Assembly: GCA_964248365.1 (NCBI GenBank)
Contig: CAXTYC010000001.1
Coordinates: forward strand, 96,001-160,000
Reading direction: 5' to 3'
From: an uncultured Chroococcidiopsis sp.
Lineage (GTDB): Bacteria > Cyanobacteriota > Cyanobacteriia > Cyanobacteriales > Chroococcidiopsidaceae
DNA: 64,000 nt
Notes under the pieces: model-generated
What the model was told of the DNA's origin: nothing
Database searches by the model: none
What the model saw: the letters and a program-made list of their open reading frames with translations, nothing else
Shown: positions 311 to 10,729 of the stretch, one piece after another
Position numbering within the stretch: position 1 is the first letter of the stretch
Layout: every line of letters starts with the position of its first letter
Made by a program: the position numbers and the translations under genes

Positions 311-625
311 ATGAAAAGTAAATCCGAAGGTCTTCGCGTTGCTGCTACCGCAATCATCTGGGGTTTCGCTACGGGTATGCTGGTAATTTGTATTCCACTG
401 GTAGGTATGACTGGAACTCCAGTTCTTCCCCTAGCTGTGATTATAGGTGCTGCTGTTAGTACTGTTGTGGTTTGGCGTAGCTCTGAGCGCAAACCTCGAA
501 ATCAACCTTTTTTAACCAGTACCATGCAACAAATAGAGCAACGAGTAGGTAATTTGGAAACGATTGTTAGTAATCAAGAATTAGATCTAGATAATAAGAT
601 AAAAAGGTTAAATTCAAAGGATTAA
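311..625 (+). CDS. Small membrane protein (2 TM helices plus coiled-coil tail)
   Basis: Two hydrophobic segments followed by the heptad-like MQQIEQRVGNLETIVS. Confidence 0.7.
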   Translation: MKSKSEGLRVAATAIIWGFATGMLVICIPLVGMTGTPVLPLAVIIGAAVSTVVVWRSSERKPRNQPFLTSTMQQIEQRVGNLETIVSNQELDLDNKIKRLNSKD

Positions 626-900
626 ATAGAAACAATTATATTATCGTAATTTACGCTGTATTGACGTACACTTTTGCGTTTCTACAAACGTAATATCACA
701 TAATAAATAACTTATTTTAACATCATATCTAAAGAAATATACGTTTTATTTTACCATACTTTTTTTTAAAAAACAAATAATAAAGTTATCTGAGAATTTG
801 TAGTAAAACTACTTAATTACTTGCGGTATAAATCTAATGATAGATGACGGTATAACTTGTTACTTTTTTAATATAAATATAGTTGTTTTTCAGTAATTGG

Positions 901-1623
901 ATGCTTACATCAACGCAGCAGGTCAAAGATATCTTCTTTTGTCCAGAAGAATCTAGTTTTTATGCATATTGCTTAGAGACATTAGTGTTAAATCAGTGTA
1001 TTGACACAGAATCAATTATTGAATTTGGCTCAGGTGATGGTAGTCCGGTTATTCAATCTCTGCTTAGAGCAAATTTTAATGGTATAGTTCATGGTTTTGA
1101 GCTTAATAAGCTAGCTTGTGCAGAGGCAAATTCAAAAATAGAAGAATATGGATTAGGAAAAAAATACCTAATTCACAATCGCTCTTTCTTTGATTCAGGG
1201 CGACCGAAGGCTAAGTATCTAGTATCAAATCCTCCCTATTTACCTGCATTAGATAATAAACTATATCAACCTCTATTGCATGGTGGAAAAGATGGAATTA
1301 CAGTTACTCAAAAACTTTTAGCCTTAGATTATGAAAATGTCTTAGTGATGGTTTCTAGTTATTCTAATCCAGAGGGTTTGATTGATTACGCTATCACAAA
1401 AGGATACCACACTTCTAATTTTCTCGTCTCGCCTTTACAGTTTGGCTATTACAGTTCTGAGCCAAAGGTGATGGATAGAATTGGGGAAATGAAAAAACAT
1501 AACATGGCTTTTTGCACGAAAAATATCTATTTGTTAGCAGGTGTTTTGTTTAGCAAGCGACATCAAGCAGCATCTGATTTATCCAATGAACTATTGCAGA
1601 TAATGACATCACTTCATGAGTGA
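901..1623 (+). CDS. Class I SAM-dependent methyltransferase with NPPY motif
   Basis: Motif I IIEFGSGDG, GFELN after beta-2, and VSNPPYLP. ATG at 901 preferred over TTG at 883. Confidence 0.85.
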   Translation: MLTSTQQVKDIFFCPEESSFYAYCLETLVLNQCIDTESIIEFGSGDGSPVIQSLLRANFNGIVHGFELNKLACAEANSKIEEYGLGKKYLIHNRSFFDSGRPKAKYLVSNPPYLPALDNKLYQPLLHGGKDGITVTQKLLALDYENVLVMVSSYSNPEGLIDYAITKGYHTSNFLVSPLQFGYYSSEPKVMDRIGEMKKHNMAFCTKNIYLLAGVLFSKRHQAASDLSNELLQIMTSLHE

Positions 1624-1676
1624 TTAAGGTAAAGGGTGAATAAACAGACGTAACAGTGCTACGCCTGTACTGGTTG

Positions 1677-1709
1677 TTCTCATTCCCAGGCTCAGCCTGG
1701 GAATGAGAA
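1677..1709. terminator. Perfect inverted repeat between convergent genes (bidirectional terminator or REP-like element)
   Basis: TTCTCATTCCCAGGCT-C-AGCCTGGGAATGAGAA. A related copy lies at 20648-20680. Confidence 0.6.
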
Positions 1710-1721
1710 TTCTACTCATTA

Positions 1722-2807
1722 CTATTTGGCTGTCTGCTCTGCAAGACGTGCCTCGCGCACGATGGCTGCACCTGCGCGATCGCCCATTAGCTTTTCTTGG
1801 TCGTATCCTAGTACTAATTCCCAAGCATCATGGGGATATCGATCTGCTAGGGGTAATGCAACATCATCCAACATCCAACGTCCGTGTCGTTCGTCTTCTC
1901 TGATGTGCAGTTCCCAATATCCCATAGCAGCTGATGATAATCCCAGCCGTTGCGCTGCTGCTAAATAATTTCTATATGCCGCAGGTCCTGCGACTTCAAA
2001 ATATGTTAATCCTCCATTGTAGCGCAAGAAATAGCGTTTACGCTCGGTCAGGAGGAAATTATGATTAGCACTAGCTAAGACTTCCCAAGGAACTAGATCA
2101 AAGTATGCCTCTGGTTCGGTGTGCATCCCAAACTCAGACAGCATTTGAGCGAAATAGGTAGAATGCTTGCGCGACAAGCGACCGTTGCCGTATTCTTCTA
2201 GCAGTACTCGAAAGAGTGTTGCCTGTACTTCGTTGGCAGCACCACCAAGGATACTGCACATTCGGCTTCCTTCAACTAAGCCGTCGAAAGAACCGATAGC
2301 TAGCACTCGGCGGTATCCTGCTTGTGTCATCTGTTCGCGCAAATACCGACTATCCTCAGACAAAGGTGGAGCGAGATCCTTTTCGCCACGCTCAATTAAT
2401 GCTTGCTTGACTGATGTAACATCTAATTGTTGCAGCTGGGCTACGTCGAGGTGGGATAATTCCCACTCTTGCCAAGATGCTTCGATGCGATCGCGCACAC
2501 TATGTAAATATTCAGAACGCTCGTTGGTATAATGTCGTAAGTCGTCATACCAAAATAGTTTGAGGCGGTTGATGCGATAAAGTACCCGTTGCAAAAACAG
2601 GTGCGGGGCATCAGAACTGTTTTGTTCTGCGTATGCTTCTTTTATTGCCGATGCGAGCGCGATTTCAAATTGATTTGCAATTGCAGGATCTGCATTCAGT
2701 TTTTTGTCTAGATCCTCCAATTCGAGCAGTTGGATGAATTGCTGCTCGGCTTCATCGTAGTTAATTTGTGCTGTTTGCTCGGTTAAAGTAGCGATGTTGC
2801 TGGGCAT
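1722..2807 (-). CDS. Heme-oxygenase-like diiron oxidase (iron-containing redox enzyme family)
   Basis: Candidate diiron ligands LLEEYGNG...KH, YFE and ELHIREDERH; predicted all-helical. Confidence 0.85.
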   Translation of the reverse strand: MPSNIATLTEQTAQINYDEAEQQFIQLLELEDLDKKLNADPAIANQFEIALASAIKEAYAEQNSSDAPHLFLQRVLYRINRLKLFWYDDLRHYTNERSEYLHSVRDRIEASWQEWELSHLDVAQLQQLDVTSVKQALIERGEKDLAPPLSEDSRYLREQMTQAGYRRVLAIGSFDGLVEGSRMCSILGGAANEVQATLFRVLLEEYGNGRLSRKHSTYFAQMLSEFGMHTEPEAYFDLVPWEVLASANHNFLLTERKRYFLRYNGGLTYFEVAGPAAYRNYLAAAQRLGLSSAAMGYWELHIREDERHGRWMLDDVALPLADRYPHDAWELVLGYDQEKLMGDRAGAAIVREARLAEQTAK

Positions 2808-3025: not shown

Positions 3026-3811
3026 GTGAGAAGAGAAGATTGCTTTTTTGTGCAACGCCAGGTAAGTTTGTTTTTTTCAGGCTGTGTCTTGGTTGTGCAA
3101 GTGTTTGTTTTCAGTATTGCTAATCCTGTTATAGCTAGTGTAAAAACTCAAACTCTATGCTACAATGCTAATTCCCAATTTCAACCAATTACAGATAAAA
3201 TTTCCTCGCAACCACGTATTGTAAAAGTGGTACAGCTATGGGTGGGAAAACCTGATCAAGGATTTCGTGCTGATGGCTTTGTACCCGAAGGTGCGATCGC
3301 CACAACTAATATAGCTTTAGATGGTTTAAACTCAAGTGTGCGTAGTCGCGCCACCAACCTCACAGCCTTAATTGCATTGGCTATGTTAGGCGAAGTTGAG
3401 CGAGCAGATTTAGCAATTTTTAATGCTGGTGCAATTCGGATTGATGGCTATATTCCACCTGGTTTAATTACCCAGAATGATATTATTCGTATTTTCCCAT
3501 TTGGTGGCAAAATATTAGCTGTAGAAATGAAGGGTAGTTTATTAGAAAGAGTGTTGGAACAAGGACGAGCTAACCGAGGCACAGGCGGTTATTTGCAAAC
3601 AGCTAATGTGAGTAAAAAACAGAATTTCACCACCTGGTTAATTGGAGGAGAACCTCTCGATCCAAGTCGTAATTATCGAGTGGCAATTAATGATTTTTTG
3701 ATGAGTGGTAAAGAGAAAGGTTTGGAATTTTTGAATTTTAATCAAAAGGGAGTGAAGTTAATTGCCCAAAGGCGTGATATTCGCTTGGCTGTGATTTCGC
3801 AGCTAAGATAA
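3026..3811 (+). CDS. 5'-nucleotidase C-terminal domain protein with signal-like N-terminus
   Basis: AIFNAGAIRID, DIIRIFPFGG, GGYLQ and YRVAINDFL motifs. No metallophosphatase domain. Start codon uncertain. Confidence 0.8.
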   Translation: MRREDCFFVQRQVSLFFSGCVLVVQVFVFSIANPVIASVKTQTLCYNANSQFQPITDKISSQPRIVKVVQLWVGKPDQGFRADGFVPEGAIATTNIALDGLNSSVRSRATNLTALIALAMLGEVERADLAIFNAGAIRIDGYIPPGLITQNDIIRIFPFGGKILAVEMKGSLLERVLEQGRANRGTGGYLQTANVSKKQNFTTWLIGGEPLDPSRNYRVAINDFLMSGKEKGLEFLNFNQKGVKLIAQRRDIRLAVISQLR

Positions 3812-3839: not shown

Positions 3840-4208
3840 TTAAACTTTTCGCATATTATTGCTATTGGGATCAAAACCACGCGAAAACCTGGTAGTTTGG
3901 TCGTAGCAGGCTCCACTAAAATTAGCTCCATACAGCTTGGCATTGTTTAGTCTAGCTTGCCGAAGATTAGCGTCACTCAGTTTGGCTCCACACAAGTTGG
4001 CTCTAGTCAAGTTGGCTTTGACTAGGTTAGCGCCACATAAGTTGGCTCCCCATAGTTTTGCTCTAGCTAGGTTAGCACCCTCCAAGTTGGCTCCCCACAA
4101 GTTGACTCCCGCTAAGTTAACTCCAATTAGCCTAGCGTTGACTAGGTTAGCTCCCGTAAAGTCTCGTTCCCCCGCAGCATAACGCCGCTTTAGTTCCTCA
4201 GTATCCAT
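3840..4208 (-). CDS. Pentapeptide repeat protein
   Basis: RRYAAGERDF leader followed by tandem A(N/K)LxG repeats. Confidence 0.93.
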   Translation of the reverse strand: MDTEELKRRYAAGERDFTGANLVNARLIGVNLAGVNLWGANLEGANLARAKLWGANLCGANLVKANLTRANLCGAKLSDANLRQARLNNAKLYGANFSGACYDQTTRFSRGFDPNSNNMRKV

Positions 4209-4253: not shown

Positions 4254-6485
4254 TTATAGCCAAAACTGGCGATCGCCTTCCAGCATTCCGCTGAAATTTA
4301 TTCCCTTTAGCCGTAAATAAGCAATGCTGTCAGCGCCATAGAGCGGCATTGGCAGACGAGGTGTTTGTAACGCTCCATGATGAAGTAATGTCAGTTTAAG
4401 TGTTGTTTCTAGAATATCTTCAATTGGTACTTGATATCCTTCCTCACGAACTGTCAAGCGCAAGGGACGAGCCAAACCTACTCTTTCAGAAACCTTGGTT
4501 GTCACTAAAACTGCTTCACGACATGAAAAGCGAAGCGCCAAACCTTTTTCTGGTGCTGATACAATTTTTTGATTCAGGTTATACAGTCGGGGATTATAAG
4601 ACTTGCGACACTCTACCAGAACAAACCTCGCTCCAATTGCTTTTGCCCATGCCTTTAAATTCTCCGCTTCCTTACCACGAAAAACTCCATCTCGATAAAT
4701 TAGAATAGTTTTACCTCTCAGTTGGGATTCTCCTAGCAATGTCTCTAAAAATTTTTGCGGAATTTCTTCGCCTTCAAGTGTCGAATCATCTTCCAACTGA
4801 TAGCGAATGAACTCTCCTTGTTTCCCATAAAGACGTACACTGGCACAAGCATTCCTAGTTCCAGGCAAACTTTGCTTAGCCTTTCTAGAAATATCCAAGC
4901 CAACAAAATAGTCAGCTATCTCTAACGGTTCAGCTAGAACAAAAGGCAAGTTACCCAGCTTTGCCAGCATCCCTGGAATTACTTGATTAAGAATTTGTCT
5001 ATGCTCAACACTACTCAATGTATCGGCATAAATAACTTGGCTAGCAATACCACGCCGCATTAGCTTTGAGTAGATACGATGATATAAACTGCCACCTTCT
5101 TCATTATCAGTATTGCGATCACTCTGAGGTAAAAATGTTAAAACAATATCAGTTGGAATCTCTATTGTTTCATTAATGGTTCTTTCTAACTCTGCTCTAG
5201 CATCAGCTCCTCTTAAGTTACTGATTACCACTGGCTTTTTAGTAACAACCTGACTATTAAACCCATAACTTCTCAAACGTTGTTGAACGCTATCTAAAAA
5301 AGGGTTAACAGTGAAGTCACAAATTTTCAAAGCCGCAATGCGAATCACGCTTGAGCGCTCGCGATAATGATCGTGACGGTAATAAACACCCCCACCATTT
5401 CGCTCAGATAATCCTTTAATAATTTCACCTCTCTTACCTATAAAACCTTTTCCAAAAAGTAGTGGTGTTTCATCAAGCTTGTGCGGTAATTGCCAAAATA
5501 ACGTTTTATAATCACGGCTGTTGATACTACGTTCTAACTGAAATCCATAAGTGGCTAGAGCAGTTTCAGCTTTTTGTCTATAAGAAGCTAAGAGGGCTGT
5601 TCGGTCTTTGTGGGAAATCTTGGTTGCCTTGAGTAACTTACCATAATCCACCTCGAAGCTGTCAGCAGTTTCAGCTGTAACCACAGGACGCAGTAGTACT
5701 AAGGGATAGTCACGCGATTCTCTATTTTTAAACTGTACAGTGACTAGGGGTTGGCTGTCAGGAGCAACTTTCAGTGCTTGTTTACTGATTTCACGAGTTG
5801 CCCTCTTGATTAGTCTTTCTCTGTGTTGTCCTACTGTTCCTACCCAGCGAGTGATAGTACCGTAACTATCTGTATCTATATCTCGAACATTTAAACCGTT
5901 TAAAAGCTCCTCTAAATTCTGCTTATTGGAATGATTTTGATAAAAATCTTCTAAATTACCTCGGTAAAGTACACTACTGTGAATTGTTAAAGCAAGAGCA
6001 GGCTGTAACTGTCCCTGTATTTCAATTGTTTCTGCCCAAAATTCAAGCTCGCGTCTCACATCAACCATGTTGTCAGATTCGACAGGTTTACTGGGAAGGA
6101 TTTTTGTTTTTCTTAAAACCTGGAAAGCCATCTGAGACAAAATATAAGGTGTTAATTGCCACTGACTTACTAATTCAACTGAGTAGTAGCGGTCACCAAA
6201 ATCAGTCAATTTTTCTTGAGTATTTTCGAGAGTATCCTGCCATTCTTTTTGTGTAGGCATGGAAATATTAGCCATCCCCAAGGCATAGAAATATTTATCA
6301 TGCTCCTGCCAAACAACAACCATTCCAGTTAAGTTACGACTGAGATGAAAACTCAAGCGATTGCCGTCTTCTTTACTAATTTCTGGAATTAGTCGAAAGC
6401 AGCACCAATTAGGTTGTAGAATGTTAAGCGGGAAAACTTCACTCAAAAATGTGGAAGCTTGGGAAACTGAAACAGTGCTTGTCAC
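4254..6485 (-). CDS. ago: Long prokaryotic Argonaute (PIWI domain), predicted catalytically active
   Basis: MID-like GIASQVIY...LAKLG. PIWI tetrad GLD / GEE / YRDG / YGAD (DEDD). PRLPMPLY and an aromatic C-terminus QFWL. 743 aa. The GTG start overlaps the upstream TGA (GTGA, 6482-6485). Confidence 0.95.
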
Positions 6486-7306
6486 GTACTAACCTCAGAA
6501 ACAGAAAATTCACAAATACGGCTAAATGGACAGAATTGACAACTGTAACCAGGATTAGGTGGAAAAATTCGTTTAAACTCTGCTGGTTTTTGTTTATAAC
6601 ATCGCAAATCTTTTTGATGCTGCCCAGAGATGCGTACTAATTCGATCTGGATAGCATTCAATTGAGCAGGTGTTGCAGTAATTCGCTCAGACCACTTACC
6701 AGTTTCTAAGTTGTAGAATGAGGCTATAGCTGGTTGCTGTGGGTAAAGATAGCTAGCTGCTAGTAGATAAACAAATCCCTGTCGCCGATCGAAGTCAGTT
6801 TTACCAGTCTTGAAGTCTAAAATATGTAGTGTGCCATCTTGTTCTTCAAAGATACAATCAATAGCAGCATATAAATTAAAGATGTAACTGCCCTGCTGAA
6901 TCAAAATTGGTTCTGGAAATCCTTCATCACCTCGGTTCAACTGTATAATGTTTTTTCCAAGAAGAATTGGATTATCGAAATAGTTTTTTAAGATTTTAAT
7001 TACTCGCTGCTGCACATTAGCTGGCTGTTCATTTAGTTGCAGAATCTGTGCAACTTGCTCCACACCATCCTTGCAGTAAAATACTTGACGGTTTTGATGA
7101 AATTCATAAATCCCTCTTTGAGCTAGATGACCAATTAACTGAGGTGTATTGTCTTGAGCCAATAATTCTGCTACTTGAGGTTCTTGTTTTCGAGCCTTAG
7201 TAAAGCCCCGCTTCATATCACAATGGCAACTTTCTTGCCCTATAGGTGGCCAAAATAATAACCAAAGATTATAACTTGCAAATGGTAGCCACATATTTGG
7301 TATCAA
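6482..7306 (-). CDS. Cas4-like PD-(D/E)XK nuclease with Fe-S cysteines (Argonaute-associated, ACE-like)
   Basis: AAIDC...HILDFKTG and Q...Y (RRQGFVY). N-terminal Cys (CHC) plus C-terminal CxxC-x5-C ([10 protein letters not shown]). Start is probably TTG 7306 or ATG 7294, not 7360. Confidence 0.88.
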
Positions 7307-7307
7307 T

Positions 7308-7889
7308 TTAAGCTTCAGTAATACATAGTTGGCAATCAGTTTGTTGCTGCTTCCAACCATGCTGTATTGCTACTCGCTTCAAAACTGACTTGATAGTTGT
7401 TGGAGAAGCAGAAGACATCATAATACTGGGATAAACTGCTCTACCCCATTCATGATGCTCTAGGGTACGGCAATTATTATGAACCATCGGCAACCCAAGT
7501 AAAGCTTTAACTACAGCACTATCGTCATGAGAAATTTGTCCTGAGCGCGAGAGTAGAGGATAGCCACTGCGGGAGTCGATCAAGTCTGTTAAAAATCCGC
7601 GCTCGCGCAGTTTAAACATCACTTCCAAGCCGAAGCGTTTAAACTTTTCCCGCAGTCGCTCTTTTTCCCTTTCGATATGAGGTGTAGTTTCTACTAGCTC
7701 ATATCGGGATTGCTGCAAGACAACTATAACCCACACAACAGGCAAATTCCAATCTGGTATAACTCGCTCTAAATTTTGGGCAATAAACCGACTGGGCAGA
7801 TGAATTGAAACCTGCACTGCCTGTCCTGTTTCTGTAACCAGGTAGATTGGAAAAGTTTGTGGTGACGTATATAGTTTTGAAGAGTTCAT
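7308..7889 (-). CDS. MMADHC/CblD-like protein (methylmalonic aciduria and homocystinuria type D family)
   Basis: Motifs [21 protein letters not shown] and [19 protein letters not shown] resemble the family as I recall it. Confidence 0.75.
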
Positions 7890-7977
7890 GAAGTTTTAGA
7901 AATTCCTTATTACCTCAAATTATTTCGTACATAATATCCTGCTAATCAAGCCCTAATTAAAGTTGATTTTTTCCTCA

Positions 7978-8019
7978 TGTTGCTTGTTTAATCAACACAA
8001 TCGTTCACTTGTTAGTGAA
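7978..8019. promoter_or_regulatory. Two inverted repeats in the divergent promoter (candidate XRE operators)
   Basis: TGTTGcTTgtttAAtCAACA at 7978-7997 and TTCACTtgttAGTGAA at 8004-8019. Confidence 0.5.
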
Positions 8020-8056
8020 GTTTAGAATGATTTGTGTCCAATAAAAAAAAATATAT

Positions 8057-8419
8057 ATGGAAGCAAGTTTTGGTCAACTTATACGTCAAGCGCGTAGGAA
8101 TAAAGGTTATAGCCAACGCCAACTTGCAGATCTAGTGCATTTAGATTTCACATACTTATCCAAATTAGAAAACAATCGTGCTGAACATCCTCCTAGTGAG
8201 GAAGCAATTCGATCACTGGCACAGCATTTAGATCTGCCAAATGAGGAAGAATTGATTTACCTTGCAGGTCGTATGCCTCAACGCGACCAAGAGCTTCTCA
8301 AGCCGAACTACAAATCTATGCCAGAACTATTTCGTAGGTTGCGAGAAGATCCTGAGTTTGCTCAAGAAATCCTTCGTCGGTCAGCTACACAGCCAGAAAG
8401 TGAGGACGAGCAAAGTTGA
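8057..8419 (+). CDS. XRE-family helix-turn-helix regulator
   Basis: FGQLIRQARRNKGYSQRQLA...TYLSKLENN...LAQHL. Confidence 0.93.
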   Translation: MEASFGQLIRQARRNKGYSQRQLADLVHLDFTYLSKLENNRAEHPPSEEAIRSLAQHLDLPNEEELIYLAGRMPQRDQELLKPNYKSMPELFRRLREDPEFAQEILRRSATQPESEDEQS

Positions 8420-9117
8420 ATATCTTTAAACCTTTTCGCTATCAAAAAAAACAAGAGATTGAGCGTCTAGCTAATGACCTTTTGGCGCAGATGCAAACAA
8501 CGCCTAAGTACACTCCTACATTACCTTTAGATGCTAGTCGTGTGGCTGACTTTCTGGATTTAGCTGTTGTTTGGGACAAAATTCCCGCTGACGATGAAGG
8601 GCTGATAGCAGCTAGAATTCTGCCATTAGAACGTTTAATTGAGATAAATGAAGACATTCCTCGACTAATTAACGACGCTGAAGGATTTGCAGCATCCACA
8701 ATTGCTCACGAAATTGGACACTGGGTACTTCACATCAACCAAGACGAAGTTGATAGATTTTTAAACCGACGAGTGCAAATTACACAGTCAACTGTACAGC
8801 CATTCTTGTGCCGTAGTACCAACAACCAGAAGGTAAGCAACTCAATTGAATGGCAAGCTCAGTATTTCGCTAGTTGCTTGCTGATGCCCCAATACATCCT
8901 AGAAGAAAAACGAGTAGGACGTGATTTGACCAACTGGCGCGATCTTTATGCAATGAAAGACGAGCTTGGTGTAACAATATCTAATCTGACAAATCGGCTA
9001 AAAGATCTTGGCTGGATTCACATTCCTTCAGGTTCTAAGCAAATATATTTAGGTGAGGCTGCACCTATTCGAAATAATGAGTGTTTGGATAGCGATCGCT
9101 TTTCCACCATTTCATGA
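8416..9117 (+). CDS. ImmA/IrrE-family Zn metallopeptidase
   Basis: AHEIGHW (HExxH) and EWQAQYFASCLLMP, with a C-terminal HTH-like segment. 4-bp TTGA overlap with the XRE gene. Confidence 0.92.
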   Translation: MNIFKPFRYQKKQEIERLANDLLAQMQTTPKYTPTLPLDASRVADFLDLAVVWDKIPADDEGLIAARILPLERLIEINEDIPRLINDAEGFAASTIAHEIGHWVLHINQDEVDRFLNRRVQITQSTVQPFLCRSTNNQKVSNSIEWQAQYFASCLLMPQYILEEKRVGRDLTNWRDLYAMKDELGVTISNLTNRLKDLGWIHIPSGSKQIYLGEAAPIRNNECLDSDRFSTIS

Positions 9118-9183: not shown

Positions 9184-9780
9184 ATGGAAACGGCTACAAT
9201 AACGCTCCCTCCTACCCTCAAATTGCATCTCGAATTGACGGATGAGCAATTTTTCCAGCTGTGTCAGCAAAACCAGGATTTGAGATTTGAACGCACAGCT
9301 AAAGGAGAAATACTAATTATGCCACCAACCGGAGGAGAAACTAGCAACTGTAACTTTGAAATCGCCGTGCAGCTTGGAATTTGGAACAAACAGAATAATT
9401 TAGGAGTTTGCTTTGACTCTAATGGTGGCTTTACACTGCCTAATGGTGCTGTTCGCGCACCTGATGTATCTTGGGTAAAGCGAGAGCGTTGGGAGGCTTT
9501 AACTACCCAACAGCAAGAGAAATTTGCTCCCTTATGTCCTGATTTTGTGGTTGAGTTACGCTCTGCTAGTGATTCGCTCAAGGAAACTCAGGAGAAAATG
9601 CAGGAGTATATAGATAATGGCGCACGTCTGGGTTGGTTAATCGACCGGAAAAACCAGCGCGTTGAAATATATCGCCCCCTTCAGGATGTGGAAATTTTGG
9701 AAAATCCTGCAACTGTGTCGGGGGAAGACGTGCTACCTGGGTTTGTCTTGGATCTCAGCCCGATCATGAGGATAGATTAA
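9184..9780 (+). CDS. Uma2-family endonuclease
   Basis: APDVSWV, PDFVVELRS, KMQEYIDNGARLGWLID, GEDVLPGF. Confidence 0.93.
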   Translation: METATITLPPTLKLHLELTDEQFFQLCQQNQDLRFERTAKGEILIMPPTGGETSNCNFEIAVQLGIWNKQNNLGVCFDSNGGFTLPNGAVRAPDVSWVKRERWEALTTQQQEKFAPLCPDFVVELRSASDSLKETQEKMQEYIDNGARLGWLIDRKNQRVEIYRPLQDVEILENPATVSGEDVLPGFVLDLSPIMRID

Positions 9781-10451
9781 GCAAGTGCCGCTACACGCTC
9801 TAACAACCCTTGAAATAACTTCAACCCATCTGTTCCACCCAACATCGGATCTGAGGCTCTTTCAGGATGGGGCATCATGCCCAATACGTTCCCCCCACGA
9901 TTACAAATCCCAGCAATATTGTTCACAGAGCCGTTGTGATTTTCGCCTTCGTAGCGAAATAGGACTTGACCGTTATCTTCAATTTGTTGTAAAGTCTCTT
10001 TGTTAGCGTAAAATTGACCTTCTCCGTGCGCGATTGGCAAAGTGATGATTTGTCTGGGGGAGTAAGATTGTGTCCAGGGTGAGTCAACACGTTCAACTTT
10101 TACCCACACGCGATCGCAGATAAAGTGTAAATCCCGATTTCGCATCAACGCGCCAGGTAATAACCCCGTTTCAGTCAACACCTGGAAGCCGTTGCAAATA
10201 CCCAGTACCAATTTACCTTGCTGTGCGTGTTTGACAACAGATTGCATGACGGGAGAGAAACGAGCGATCGCACCGCAGCGGAGATAATCGCCATAACTGA
10301 AACCGCCTGGAATAATTACGACATCCAAATCGTCAATATCGGTTTGTTCATGCCAAATCATGCGAGTCGGCTGCTGTAGCAAGTCGCGGGTGACATAAGC
10401 GACATCGCGATCGCAATTCGAGCCAGGAAAAACAACAACCCCAAATTTCAC
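9777..10451 (-). CDS. purQ: FGAM synthase glutamine amidotransferase subunit
   Basis: FPGSNCD, GGFSYGDYLR, GICNGFQ, MMPHPER. Confidence 0.97.
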   Translation of the reverse strand: MKFGVVVFPGSNCDRDVAYVTRDLLQQPTRMIWHEQTDIDDLDVVIIPGGFSYGDYLRCGAIARFSPVMQSVVKHAQQGKLVLGICNGFQVLTETGLLPGALMRNRDLHFICDRVWVKVERVDSPWTQSYSPRQIITLPIAHGEGQFYANKETLQQIEDNGQVLFRYEGENHNGSVNNIAGICNRGGNVLGMMPHPERASDPMLGGTDGLKLFQGLLERVAALA

Positions 10452-10729
10452 GCCGAAGCTCCCATCTCTACAGATACTTCTTTTAAGTCAAAGCGATAAT
10501 TTTCAATCACCGGATTCGCCAGCAAAGAATCGCACATCCGATCCACCTGTTCCCCTGCACTCTTCTGGTCATCTGCAATCAGGATAAGCTCAATATACTT
10601 ACCAATTCGTACCTGTTCAACGTTGTCATAACCCATGTGACTCAACCCAGCCTTGAGTGCTGTACCTGCTGGATCTAGCACAGAAGGGCGCAGGGTGACA
10701 AAAATACTAGCTCGATACTTGCGTAACAC
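10448..10729 (-). CDS. purS: FGAM synthase subunit PurS
   Basis: LRPSVLDPAG, VRIGKYIEL, LLANPVIE. Overlaps the purQ start. Confidence 0.96.
   Translation of the reverse strand: MLRKYRASIFVTLRPSVLDPAGTALKAGLSHMGYDNVEQVRIGKYIELILIADDQKSAGEQVDRMCDSLLANPVIENYRFDLKEVSVEMGASA

Follow-up and report, generated by a model that had tools for sequence, protein, structure and literature searches.

Long-A prokaryotic Argonautes (pAgos) cluster with Cas4-like genes, as described in passages of two reports (Ryazansky et al. 2018, PMC6299218; Taton et al. 2023, PMC10653904). In Synechococcus elongatus, according to passages of the second report, RSF1010 is limited by the Argonaute SeAgo together with a Cas4-like nuclease (Taton et al. 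2023, PMC10653904). Little is understood about the accessory proteins of long pAgos or about how their expression is controlled. In other defence settings, CapH/CapP pairs provide induction upon DNA damage, the repressor being cleaved by the protease. Eukaryotic MMADHC (CblD) is a B12 trafficking protein with a nitroreductase fold.

The locus described here combines members of all these groups. It lies in a stretch of 64,000 nucleotides from the genome of an uncultured Chroococcidiopsis sp. (hereafter the window), where M78 peptidase and HTH regulator genes diverge from an operon in the order MMADHC, nuclease, pAgo. The MMADHC/CblD-family gene (7308..7889, minus strand) is the first of the operon and an intact reading frame of 193 aa in the ORF list of the window, with an ATG start. 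It is followed by the gene of a Cas4-like PD-(D/E)XK nuclease (6482..7294, minus strand; 270 aa from the ATG at 7294), identified by PADLOC (Aga_Cas4-like_Nuc, E 1.5e-141) and Pfam (PDDEXK_1, E 1.3e-10). Among 26 nuclease homologues the four cysteine ligands C25, C252, C255, and C261 and the catalytic residues D146, D160, and K162 were invariant. The third gene encodes a long pAgo of the SeAgo type (4254..6485, minus strand; 743 aa; PADLOC pAgo_II, 1124.8 bits; Pfam Piwi, E 1.7e-18), which matched PDB entry 9iad_A (“Protein argonaute”) over residues 7-743 with E 3.5e-260; the start of this gene and the stop of the nuclease gene share 4 nt. On the other side of MMADHC, a divergent regulatory region of 167 nt (7890..8056) leads to the gene of a CapH-like HTH (XRE-type) regulator (8057..8419, plus strand; Pfam HTH_19, E 2.1e-12; PADLOC capH, E 1.1e-11), which shares a 4-nt overlap with that of a CapP-like M78 (IrrE-type) peptidase (8416..9117, plus strand; Pfam Peptidase_M78, E 8.8e-8; PADLOC capP, E 2.7e-16). 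A gene for a putative endonuclease of the Uma2 family (9184..9780, plus strand; Pfam Uma2, E 7.3e-50) flanks the regulator pair, and purQ/purS lie beyond it.

An earlier reading of this DNA, made from the sequence only, had placed MMADHC as the first ORF after a promoter. This was borne out by the divergent region and by the strongest promoter-like site found between 3700 and 8200 (minus strand, 8077-8050, TTGACC-16-TATATT, 10 of 12), which faces the gene. The spacing of one base between MMADHC and the nuclease, proposed in the same reading, holds for an alternative in-frame TTG at 7306, 1 nt from the MMADHC stop codon (7310-7308), in a nuclease frame whose maximal ORF reaches 7360. The ATG at 7294, which is 13 nt beyond the stop, is nevertheless the more likely start, because the PADLOC profile (its match begins at residue 23 of the maximal ORF) and the N-termini of 25 homologues begin there; with either start the two genes are tightly packed on the same strand. 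A terminator-like site inside the MMADHC ORF (7610-7597, minus strand) was rejected as a terminator, since such sites were no commoner than in shuffles (2 found vs 3.5 expected). The GC content of the cassette (0.38-0.41) differs from that of the neighboring purQ (0.45-0.47) by too little to call a genomic island from base composition.

Several observations were made on the surroundings of the cassette. A pentapeptide-repeat protein (3840-4208, minus strand; Pfam E 2.7e-44) is encoded directly downstream of pAgo; no counterpart was found next to any of the remaining cassettes examined. Uma2 homologues with 66-73% identity also adjoin the cassette in loci L082, L087, and L091, so that Uma2 is a frequent neighbor rather than an established member of the module. 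Together with purS-purQ it adjoins the cassette both in the window (9184-10729) and in genome G050 (L087, 66-4038), where the cassette has neither HTH/M78 nor MMADHC; these common surroundings may reflect a chromosomal location common to both genomes or a hotspot of integration. The genome of the window also encodes, outside the window, a second nuclease paralogue with 56% identity (G000:C7:89473-90261), which is solo, with no pAgo adjoining. Nuclease homologues were found in 39/45 genomes of one cyanobacterial family (f5), and a pAgo match in only 5 of those 45.

The assignment of the first gene to the MMADHC/CblD family, already proposed in the sequence-only reading, is secure by Pfam, PDB profile search, and predicted fold. 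The protein matched Pfam MMADHC (PF10229) with E 7.1e-9 and 36.2 bits, exceeding the cut-off of 27, and a scan of the whole genome with PF10229 returned this one locus (35.5 bits). Residues 24-163 were aligned to positions 123-263 of the 272-position profile. Its N-terminal half is not represented, the first ~120 positions being missing, and the protein corresponds only to the C-terminal nitroreductase-like domain of the family. A homologue search retrieved 257 proteins at E<=1e-3 out of 309 candidates scored. Among the matches listed, PF10229 was present in 120/120 homologues, and those named by their source were called MMADHC and came from filamentous cyanobacteria. Searching the PDB with a profile of 36 homologues led to the human and mouse MMADHC chains (E 1.6e-16, query residues 23-164). 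An AlphaFold2 model calculated on the homologue alignment had a mean pLDDT of 81.7 and a pTM of 0.79. When it was compared to the PDB with Foldseek, all 8 matches at E<=0.001 were CblD/MMADHC chains (E 1.7e-8 to 2e-6, target TM 0.74-0.80), and the next-best match had an E of 0.11. The family alignment contained 35 invariant columns, including a single cysteine (C140) and the motif C-x4-H-x2-W-G. Fused or longer forms of the protein were not found among 420 candidates scored, a weak test, and no model in NCBIfam or PADLOC matched it.

A phylum sample of 401 genomes was searched for MMADHC, pAgo, and nuclease, with a threshold of E below 1e-100 for pAgo orthologues. The MMADHC family was detected in 67/401 genomes and was single-copy in all but one; pAgo orthologues were present in 20, and in 20/20 the nuclease directly adjoined. 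MMADHC adjoined pAgo/nuclease in one of the 67 MMADHC-bearing genomes, that of the window. Among the other 19 pAgo genomes, MMADHC was on another contig or far away in 9 (in 2 of these 9 under the Pfam cut-off) and missing in 10. Further loci were collected by profile scans of genomes (one per species) and of metagenome contigs; scans with the single protein had given none from either. Seven of the 80 MMADHC loci in the genome scan showed the linked five-gene order, namely L009 in Argonema, L010 and L012 in Floridaenema, L018 and L025 in Microcoleus, L032 in “Phorm 6”, and L023 in an uncultured organism, as did one of 80 loci in the metagenome scan (L106). At least 3 kb of downstream sequence was available in 75/80 genome loci, so the absence of the cassette from the unlinked loci is real. 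In the host family of L018, to which genome G403 belongs, 9/71 genomes carried MMADHC, and it was linked only in that of L018. Including the window, the linked arrangement was thus found in 9 loci and at least five named genera; linkage of MMADHC to the pAgo cassette is rare but recurrent.

Counted by cassette, MMADHC was present in 9/28 examined and absent in 19/28, and 10 of the cassette-bearing genomes had no MMADHC anywhere. MMADHC is an optional component of the cassette and does not belong to its core, and these 19 cassettes and 10 genomes mean that the gene is not a general requirement of nuclease and pAgo. The sequence-only reading had counted mostly unlinked orthologues as half of one case against its own proposal of a role in the operon, and this half is what the counts show, linked copies making up 1/67, 7/80, 1/80, and 1/9 of those in the four samples, in addition to the 19/28 cassettes devoid of the gene. 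A genome-wide association of pAgo with MMADHC was considered, since MMADHC was found anywhere in the genome in 10/20 pAgo genomes vs 67/401 overall, but was rejected: host phylogeny explains it, as family f5 carries the gene in 44/45 genomes. The same host background covers the finding that MMADHC was encoded somewhere in 14/16 hosts in the part of the pAgo tree with linked cassettes vs 3/11 in the other clade. The closest metagenomic relative of the MMADHC of the window, L102 (78% protein and 80% DNA identity), lies on a contig that ends 2 nt after the match; upstream it has a truncated Uma2-like remnant (1283-1486, minus strand) where the window has HTH/M78/Uma2, and no HTH.

The core cassette consists of four genes, CapP-like M78, CapH-like HTH, nuclease, and pAgo, with operator-like palindromes; the slot that MMADHC fills has the operator region on one side and the nuclease on the other. 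An HTH gene adjoins each of the 9 MMADHC-bearing cassettes, that of the window included, and 15/18 complete cassettes without MMADHC; in these 15, HTH and M78 were directly divergent from the nuclease. Of the remaining three complete loci, one had HTH remnants only and two had neither HTH nor M78. The 19th locus without MMADHC, that of G284, is split over two short contigs and has an operator-like palindrome ~170 nt before the nuclease. Palindromes of the type TTGA-N8-10-(T/C)CAA were present in 20/22 non-empty intergenic regions of related cassettes, whether the next gene was the nuclease or MMADHC, while by chance only 0.2-10% of shuffles per region reached one match. The copies in the window itself are degenerate, with no match to the strict pattern. 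Because HTH and the same palindromes directly precede the nuclease in cassettes without MMADHC, the gene must be regarded as lying inside the module and not beside it.

At the junction of MMADHC and nuclease the ORF calls ranged from overlapping to a few bases apart in six loci, with 13 nt between them in the window and ~140 nt in L023. In L106 a 73-aa ORF (3221-3442, plus strand) is found between the two genes. This ORF, which has no Pfam match, fills the same slot in L086 (5248-5469, minus strand), L088, L089, and L091, and hence in 5/28 cassettes, L106 alone of those named having both genes. Among 8 linked loci compared, flanking ORFs were common only within the pairs L010/L012 and L018/L032, and the five genes therefore form a conserved unit. 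Conserved and under selection, this arrangement also moves as a single unit.

Further variation was observed around the regulators. Palindromes of the TTGAC-N7-8-GTCAA type occur within the promoter region common to HTH and cassette genes. L106 encodes a fusion of the HTH and M78 domains in an ORF of 364 aa (492-2297, minus strand), followed by a second M78 gene, and two M78 genes are also present in L088 and L091. Beside the M78 gene, L018 (2382-5738, minus strand) and L032 (2385-5738, minus strand) have an ORF of ~1118 aa that is only 68% identical between the two vs 84-98% for the neighboring genes; this rapidly evolving neighbor is possibly a further defence gene.

A tree of 81 MMADHC proteins included 8 linked copies, all of which (8/8) fell within one 21-row non-Nostocales clade with a support of 100. 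The linked label required 2 changes on this tree, and 0/500 shuffles were as low. A single clade of linked copies was not rejected (AU p 0.44), so the suggestion from the sequence alone that pAgo-linked copies might form a clade apart from solo copies is compatible with the tree. Linked copies were placed outside the clade of solo copies even within the same named families, e.g., Floridaenema vs Microseira. The pAgo tree gave a different picture: one clade of MMADHC-bearing cassettes was rejected (AU p 5e-117), the cassette of L082, which has no MMADHC, was sister to those of Floridaenema (support 100), and a clade of 11 rows (support 95) was devoid of any cassette with MMADHC. Repeated loss, gain, or recombination is therefore needed, the simplest history being a single capture with later losses, or else recombination among cassettes. 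Linked MMADHC copies are under purifying selection. Their dN/dS values of 0.10-0.34 were similar to those of nuclease and pAgo of the same loci, and their median of 0.157 compares to 0.118 and 0.164 for solo copies. Between the window and L009, dS was also similar for MMADHC, nuclease, and pAgo (1.5, 1.3, and 1.1). Linked copies vary in 18 columns in which conservation among solo copies reaches 90% or more, but all family-invariant residues are kept.

A working accessory, i.e., a thiol-dependent adaptor for the Fe-S nuclease, is favored by the place of MMADHC within the module, its long co-inheritance, its retention in host groups that are often without the family, and the existence of a second slot gene; we put this reading first, tentatively and somewhat short of calling it probable. 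In such a scenario, one sublineage of SeAgo-type pAgo cassettes would have acquired a CblD/MMADHC gene in a variable accessory slot, with the Cas4-like nuclease on one side and, on the other, a promoter region that bears the operator and is under the control of a CapH-like repressor and a CapP-like protease. The gene would be transcribed together with nuclease and pAgo, would be passed on with them as a unit of five genes, and would be expressed whenever the repressor is relieved. As a small adaptor that depends on a thiol, its product might then act on the Fe-S nuclease or in concert with it, possibly by cofactor handling or by redox gating via the hairpin that carries Cys140, and presumably not as a B12 chaperone of the human type. 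A prediction of the complex of MMADHC and nuclease, with both proteins entered as alignments, gave scores of 0.28 and 0.01, the mark being 0.32, and counts neither for nor against binding. In a wider version, MMADHC would be a working component of a sublineage of SeAgo-type systems, a thiol- and cofactor-dependent adaptor that gates or matures the Fe-S nuclease or acts in pAgo loading, either in cis or in trans from a solo copy; this we consider doubtful.

The strongest alternative is that MMADHC is a passenger or relocated housekeeping gene with an ordinary, pAgo-independent job, kept by linkage and by its usefulness to the host, with no role in defence. We regard such cargo as a serious possibility, although not quite a probable one, and much of the case for it comes from the solo copies. 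In family f5 the MMADHC family is near-universal, single-copy, and syntenic, and in 6/6 linked genomes tested (that of the window and five others) the linked copy was the only PF10229 match, as expected for one copy per genome. Solo MMADHC genes have a TrkA-type channel, a class-III aminotransferase, RsmH, and a MotA/ExbB-like gene in their neighborhood; a ~70-aa ORF with no Pfam match lies upstream in 83/160 loci (e.g., L005, 1447-1668, plus strand) and the TrkA-type channel downstream in 52/160. This usual site is empty in two linked genomes, that of the window (G000, L184) and G404 (L185). In both of them the 70-aa gene (in the window’s genome at L184 1483-1713, plus strand, on G000:C10) adjoins the TrkA-type channel gene, and neither MMADHC nor a remnant of it was detectable between the two. 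The other four linked genomes also have the 70-aa gene, without MMADHC beside it. Cassettes without MMADHC whose hosts own a copy (G368, G284, G050, G234) point in the same direction; so does the cassette of L082, whose host has a solo copy elsewhere, a situation that fits simple redundancy. The ten cassette-bearing genomes without any MMADHC, and the match of linked and solo copies in invariant residues and dN/dS, are likewise what cargo would predict.

Against cargo, however, speaks the position of MMADHC, which has the operator region on one side and the effectors on the other instead of lying at the edge of the module. The arrangement has also persisted over saturated synonymous divergence with flanks common only within two close pairs, and the linked copies group apart from the solo clade even in the same named families. 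Moreover, host relatives are often devoid of the family, which was present in 0/2 relatives in the window’s own family and in 8/70 other genomes of the family of G403; retention of MMADHC is therefore not explained by core status in the hosts, and no host need is obvious. The working-accessory and cargo readings are close.

Around solo copies of the Nostoc type we also observed a gene similar to the alpha subunit of haem-dependent oxidative N-demethylase (PF11927), directly downstream of MMADHC and on the same strand in 15/160 loci (e.g., L047, 2221-3243, plus strand, E 2.7e-50), with a median gap of 93 nt. It is a possible operon partner of solo MMADHC, pointing to tetrapyrrole chemistry.

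The gene product might, alternatively, serve as a genuine cobalamin (corrinoid) chaperone like the human protein, loading or holding B12 via a Co-S bond, for instance for methionine synthase, so that the operon would tie cofactor supply to the response to DNA damage or infection. The strong match of fold and profile to human CblD would suit such a function, and the genome of the window does encode a B12-dependent methionine synthase (MetH; 1196-aa frame, PF02965, E 5.8e-37). The invariant cysteine, too, lies in the hairpin that bears Cys-261 and Cys-262 in the human protein, where, according to passages of the source, these form a vicinal pair in a beta-hairpin with Cys-261 ligating cobalt and Cys-262 proposed to release it (PMC12501144). 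C140 was aligned by HMM to Cys-262, the neighbor of the cobalt ligand; the residue before it, however, was never a cysteine across 36 aligned homologues, leaving a single cysteine where the human protein has its ligation/release pair, and the N-terminal half of the Pfam profile is missing as well. No match to MMACHC/CblC (PF16690) was found in the genome of the window, which is 99.97% complete, a weak argument as none was found in any of 14 control genomes either. In addition, the Synechococcus elongatus control has MetH and no PF10229 match. With vicinal cysteines, N-terminal region, and a detectable CblC all missing, a human-type B12 chaperone is the less likely reading and in our view an improbable one. 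A link to B12-dependent ribonucleotide reductase was dropped, as the genome of the window had no match to NrdJ_Z.

Chance adjacency or a mis-called ORF without biological meaning, which the rarity of linkage in random samples might suggest (1/67 and 1/9 MMADHC-bearing genomes, each the seed genome), is hardly conceivable for an intact ORF with hundreds of homologues and under purifying selection, and is contradicted by the recurrence of the identical five-gene order in 9 loci.

The five-gene cassette is a real, rare variant of the known pAgo cassette, and the present work defines this SeAgo-type variant and its variable slot between the repressor-controlled promoter and the nuclease, in which a CblD-family member has been kept across several genera. 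Should MMADHC act with nuclease or pAgo, it would offer a handle on the switching or maturation of these systems. If the wider adaptor reading is true, the CblD fold would gain its first role other than in B12 trafficking, and a tetrapyrrole-cofactor chaperone family would be tied to prokaryotic immunity for the first time; were the gene mere cargo, its linked and solo copies would still open a simple genetic route to the function of bacterial CblD.

Among the openly accessible papers searched, none combined Argonaute and MMADHC in prokaryotes. Publications naming both were biomedical by their titles and the openings of their abstracts, and no paper searched paired “prokaryotic Argonaute” with “methylmalonic aciduria”. 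The text passages and searchable supplements of Ryazansky et al. (2018, PMC6299218) name Cas4 and neither MMADHC nor Peptidase_M78, and passages of Taton et al. (2023, PMC10653904) contain no mention of a CblD-family gene ahead of the nuclease. A publication joining CapH, CapP, and Argonaute was not found in the literature search either.

The closest described system is the SeAgo-type long-A pAgo system, which has the same pAgo (pAgo_II; 9iad_A) and adjoining Cas4-like nuclease (Aga_Cas4-like_Nuc) as the window; the variant in the window differs from it by the extra CblD-family gene ahead of the nuclease. With the CapH/CapP pair of CBASS and other defence systems the cassette shares the divergent HTH and M78 genes and the palindromes in their common promoter region. 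Unlike in CBASS, the pair here flanks a pAgo cassette, where induction by DNA damage with cleavage of the repressor would be a predicted property. The C-terminal domain of human and mouse MMADHC (PDB 5CV0, 5A4R, 6X8Z, 9MRS) has the same fold as the cyanobacterial protein, and human MMADHC shares with it the motif C-x4-H-x2-W-G, in the hairpin that carries the cobalt-ligating cysteine. Compared to human CblD, however, the cyanobacterial protein is only ~190 aa long, lacks the N-terminal 120 profile positions, and has a single cysteine instead of the Cys-261/Cys-262 pair; and unlike human MMADHC, the cyanobacterial homologue is encoded in a defence operon here and as a solo gene in most cyanobacteria.
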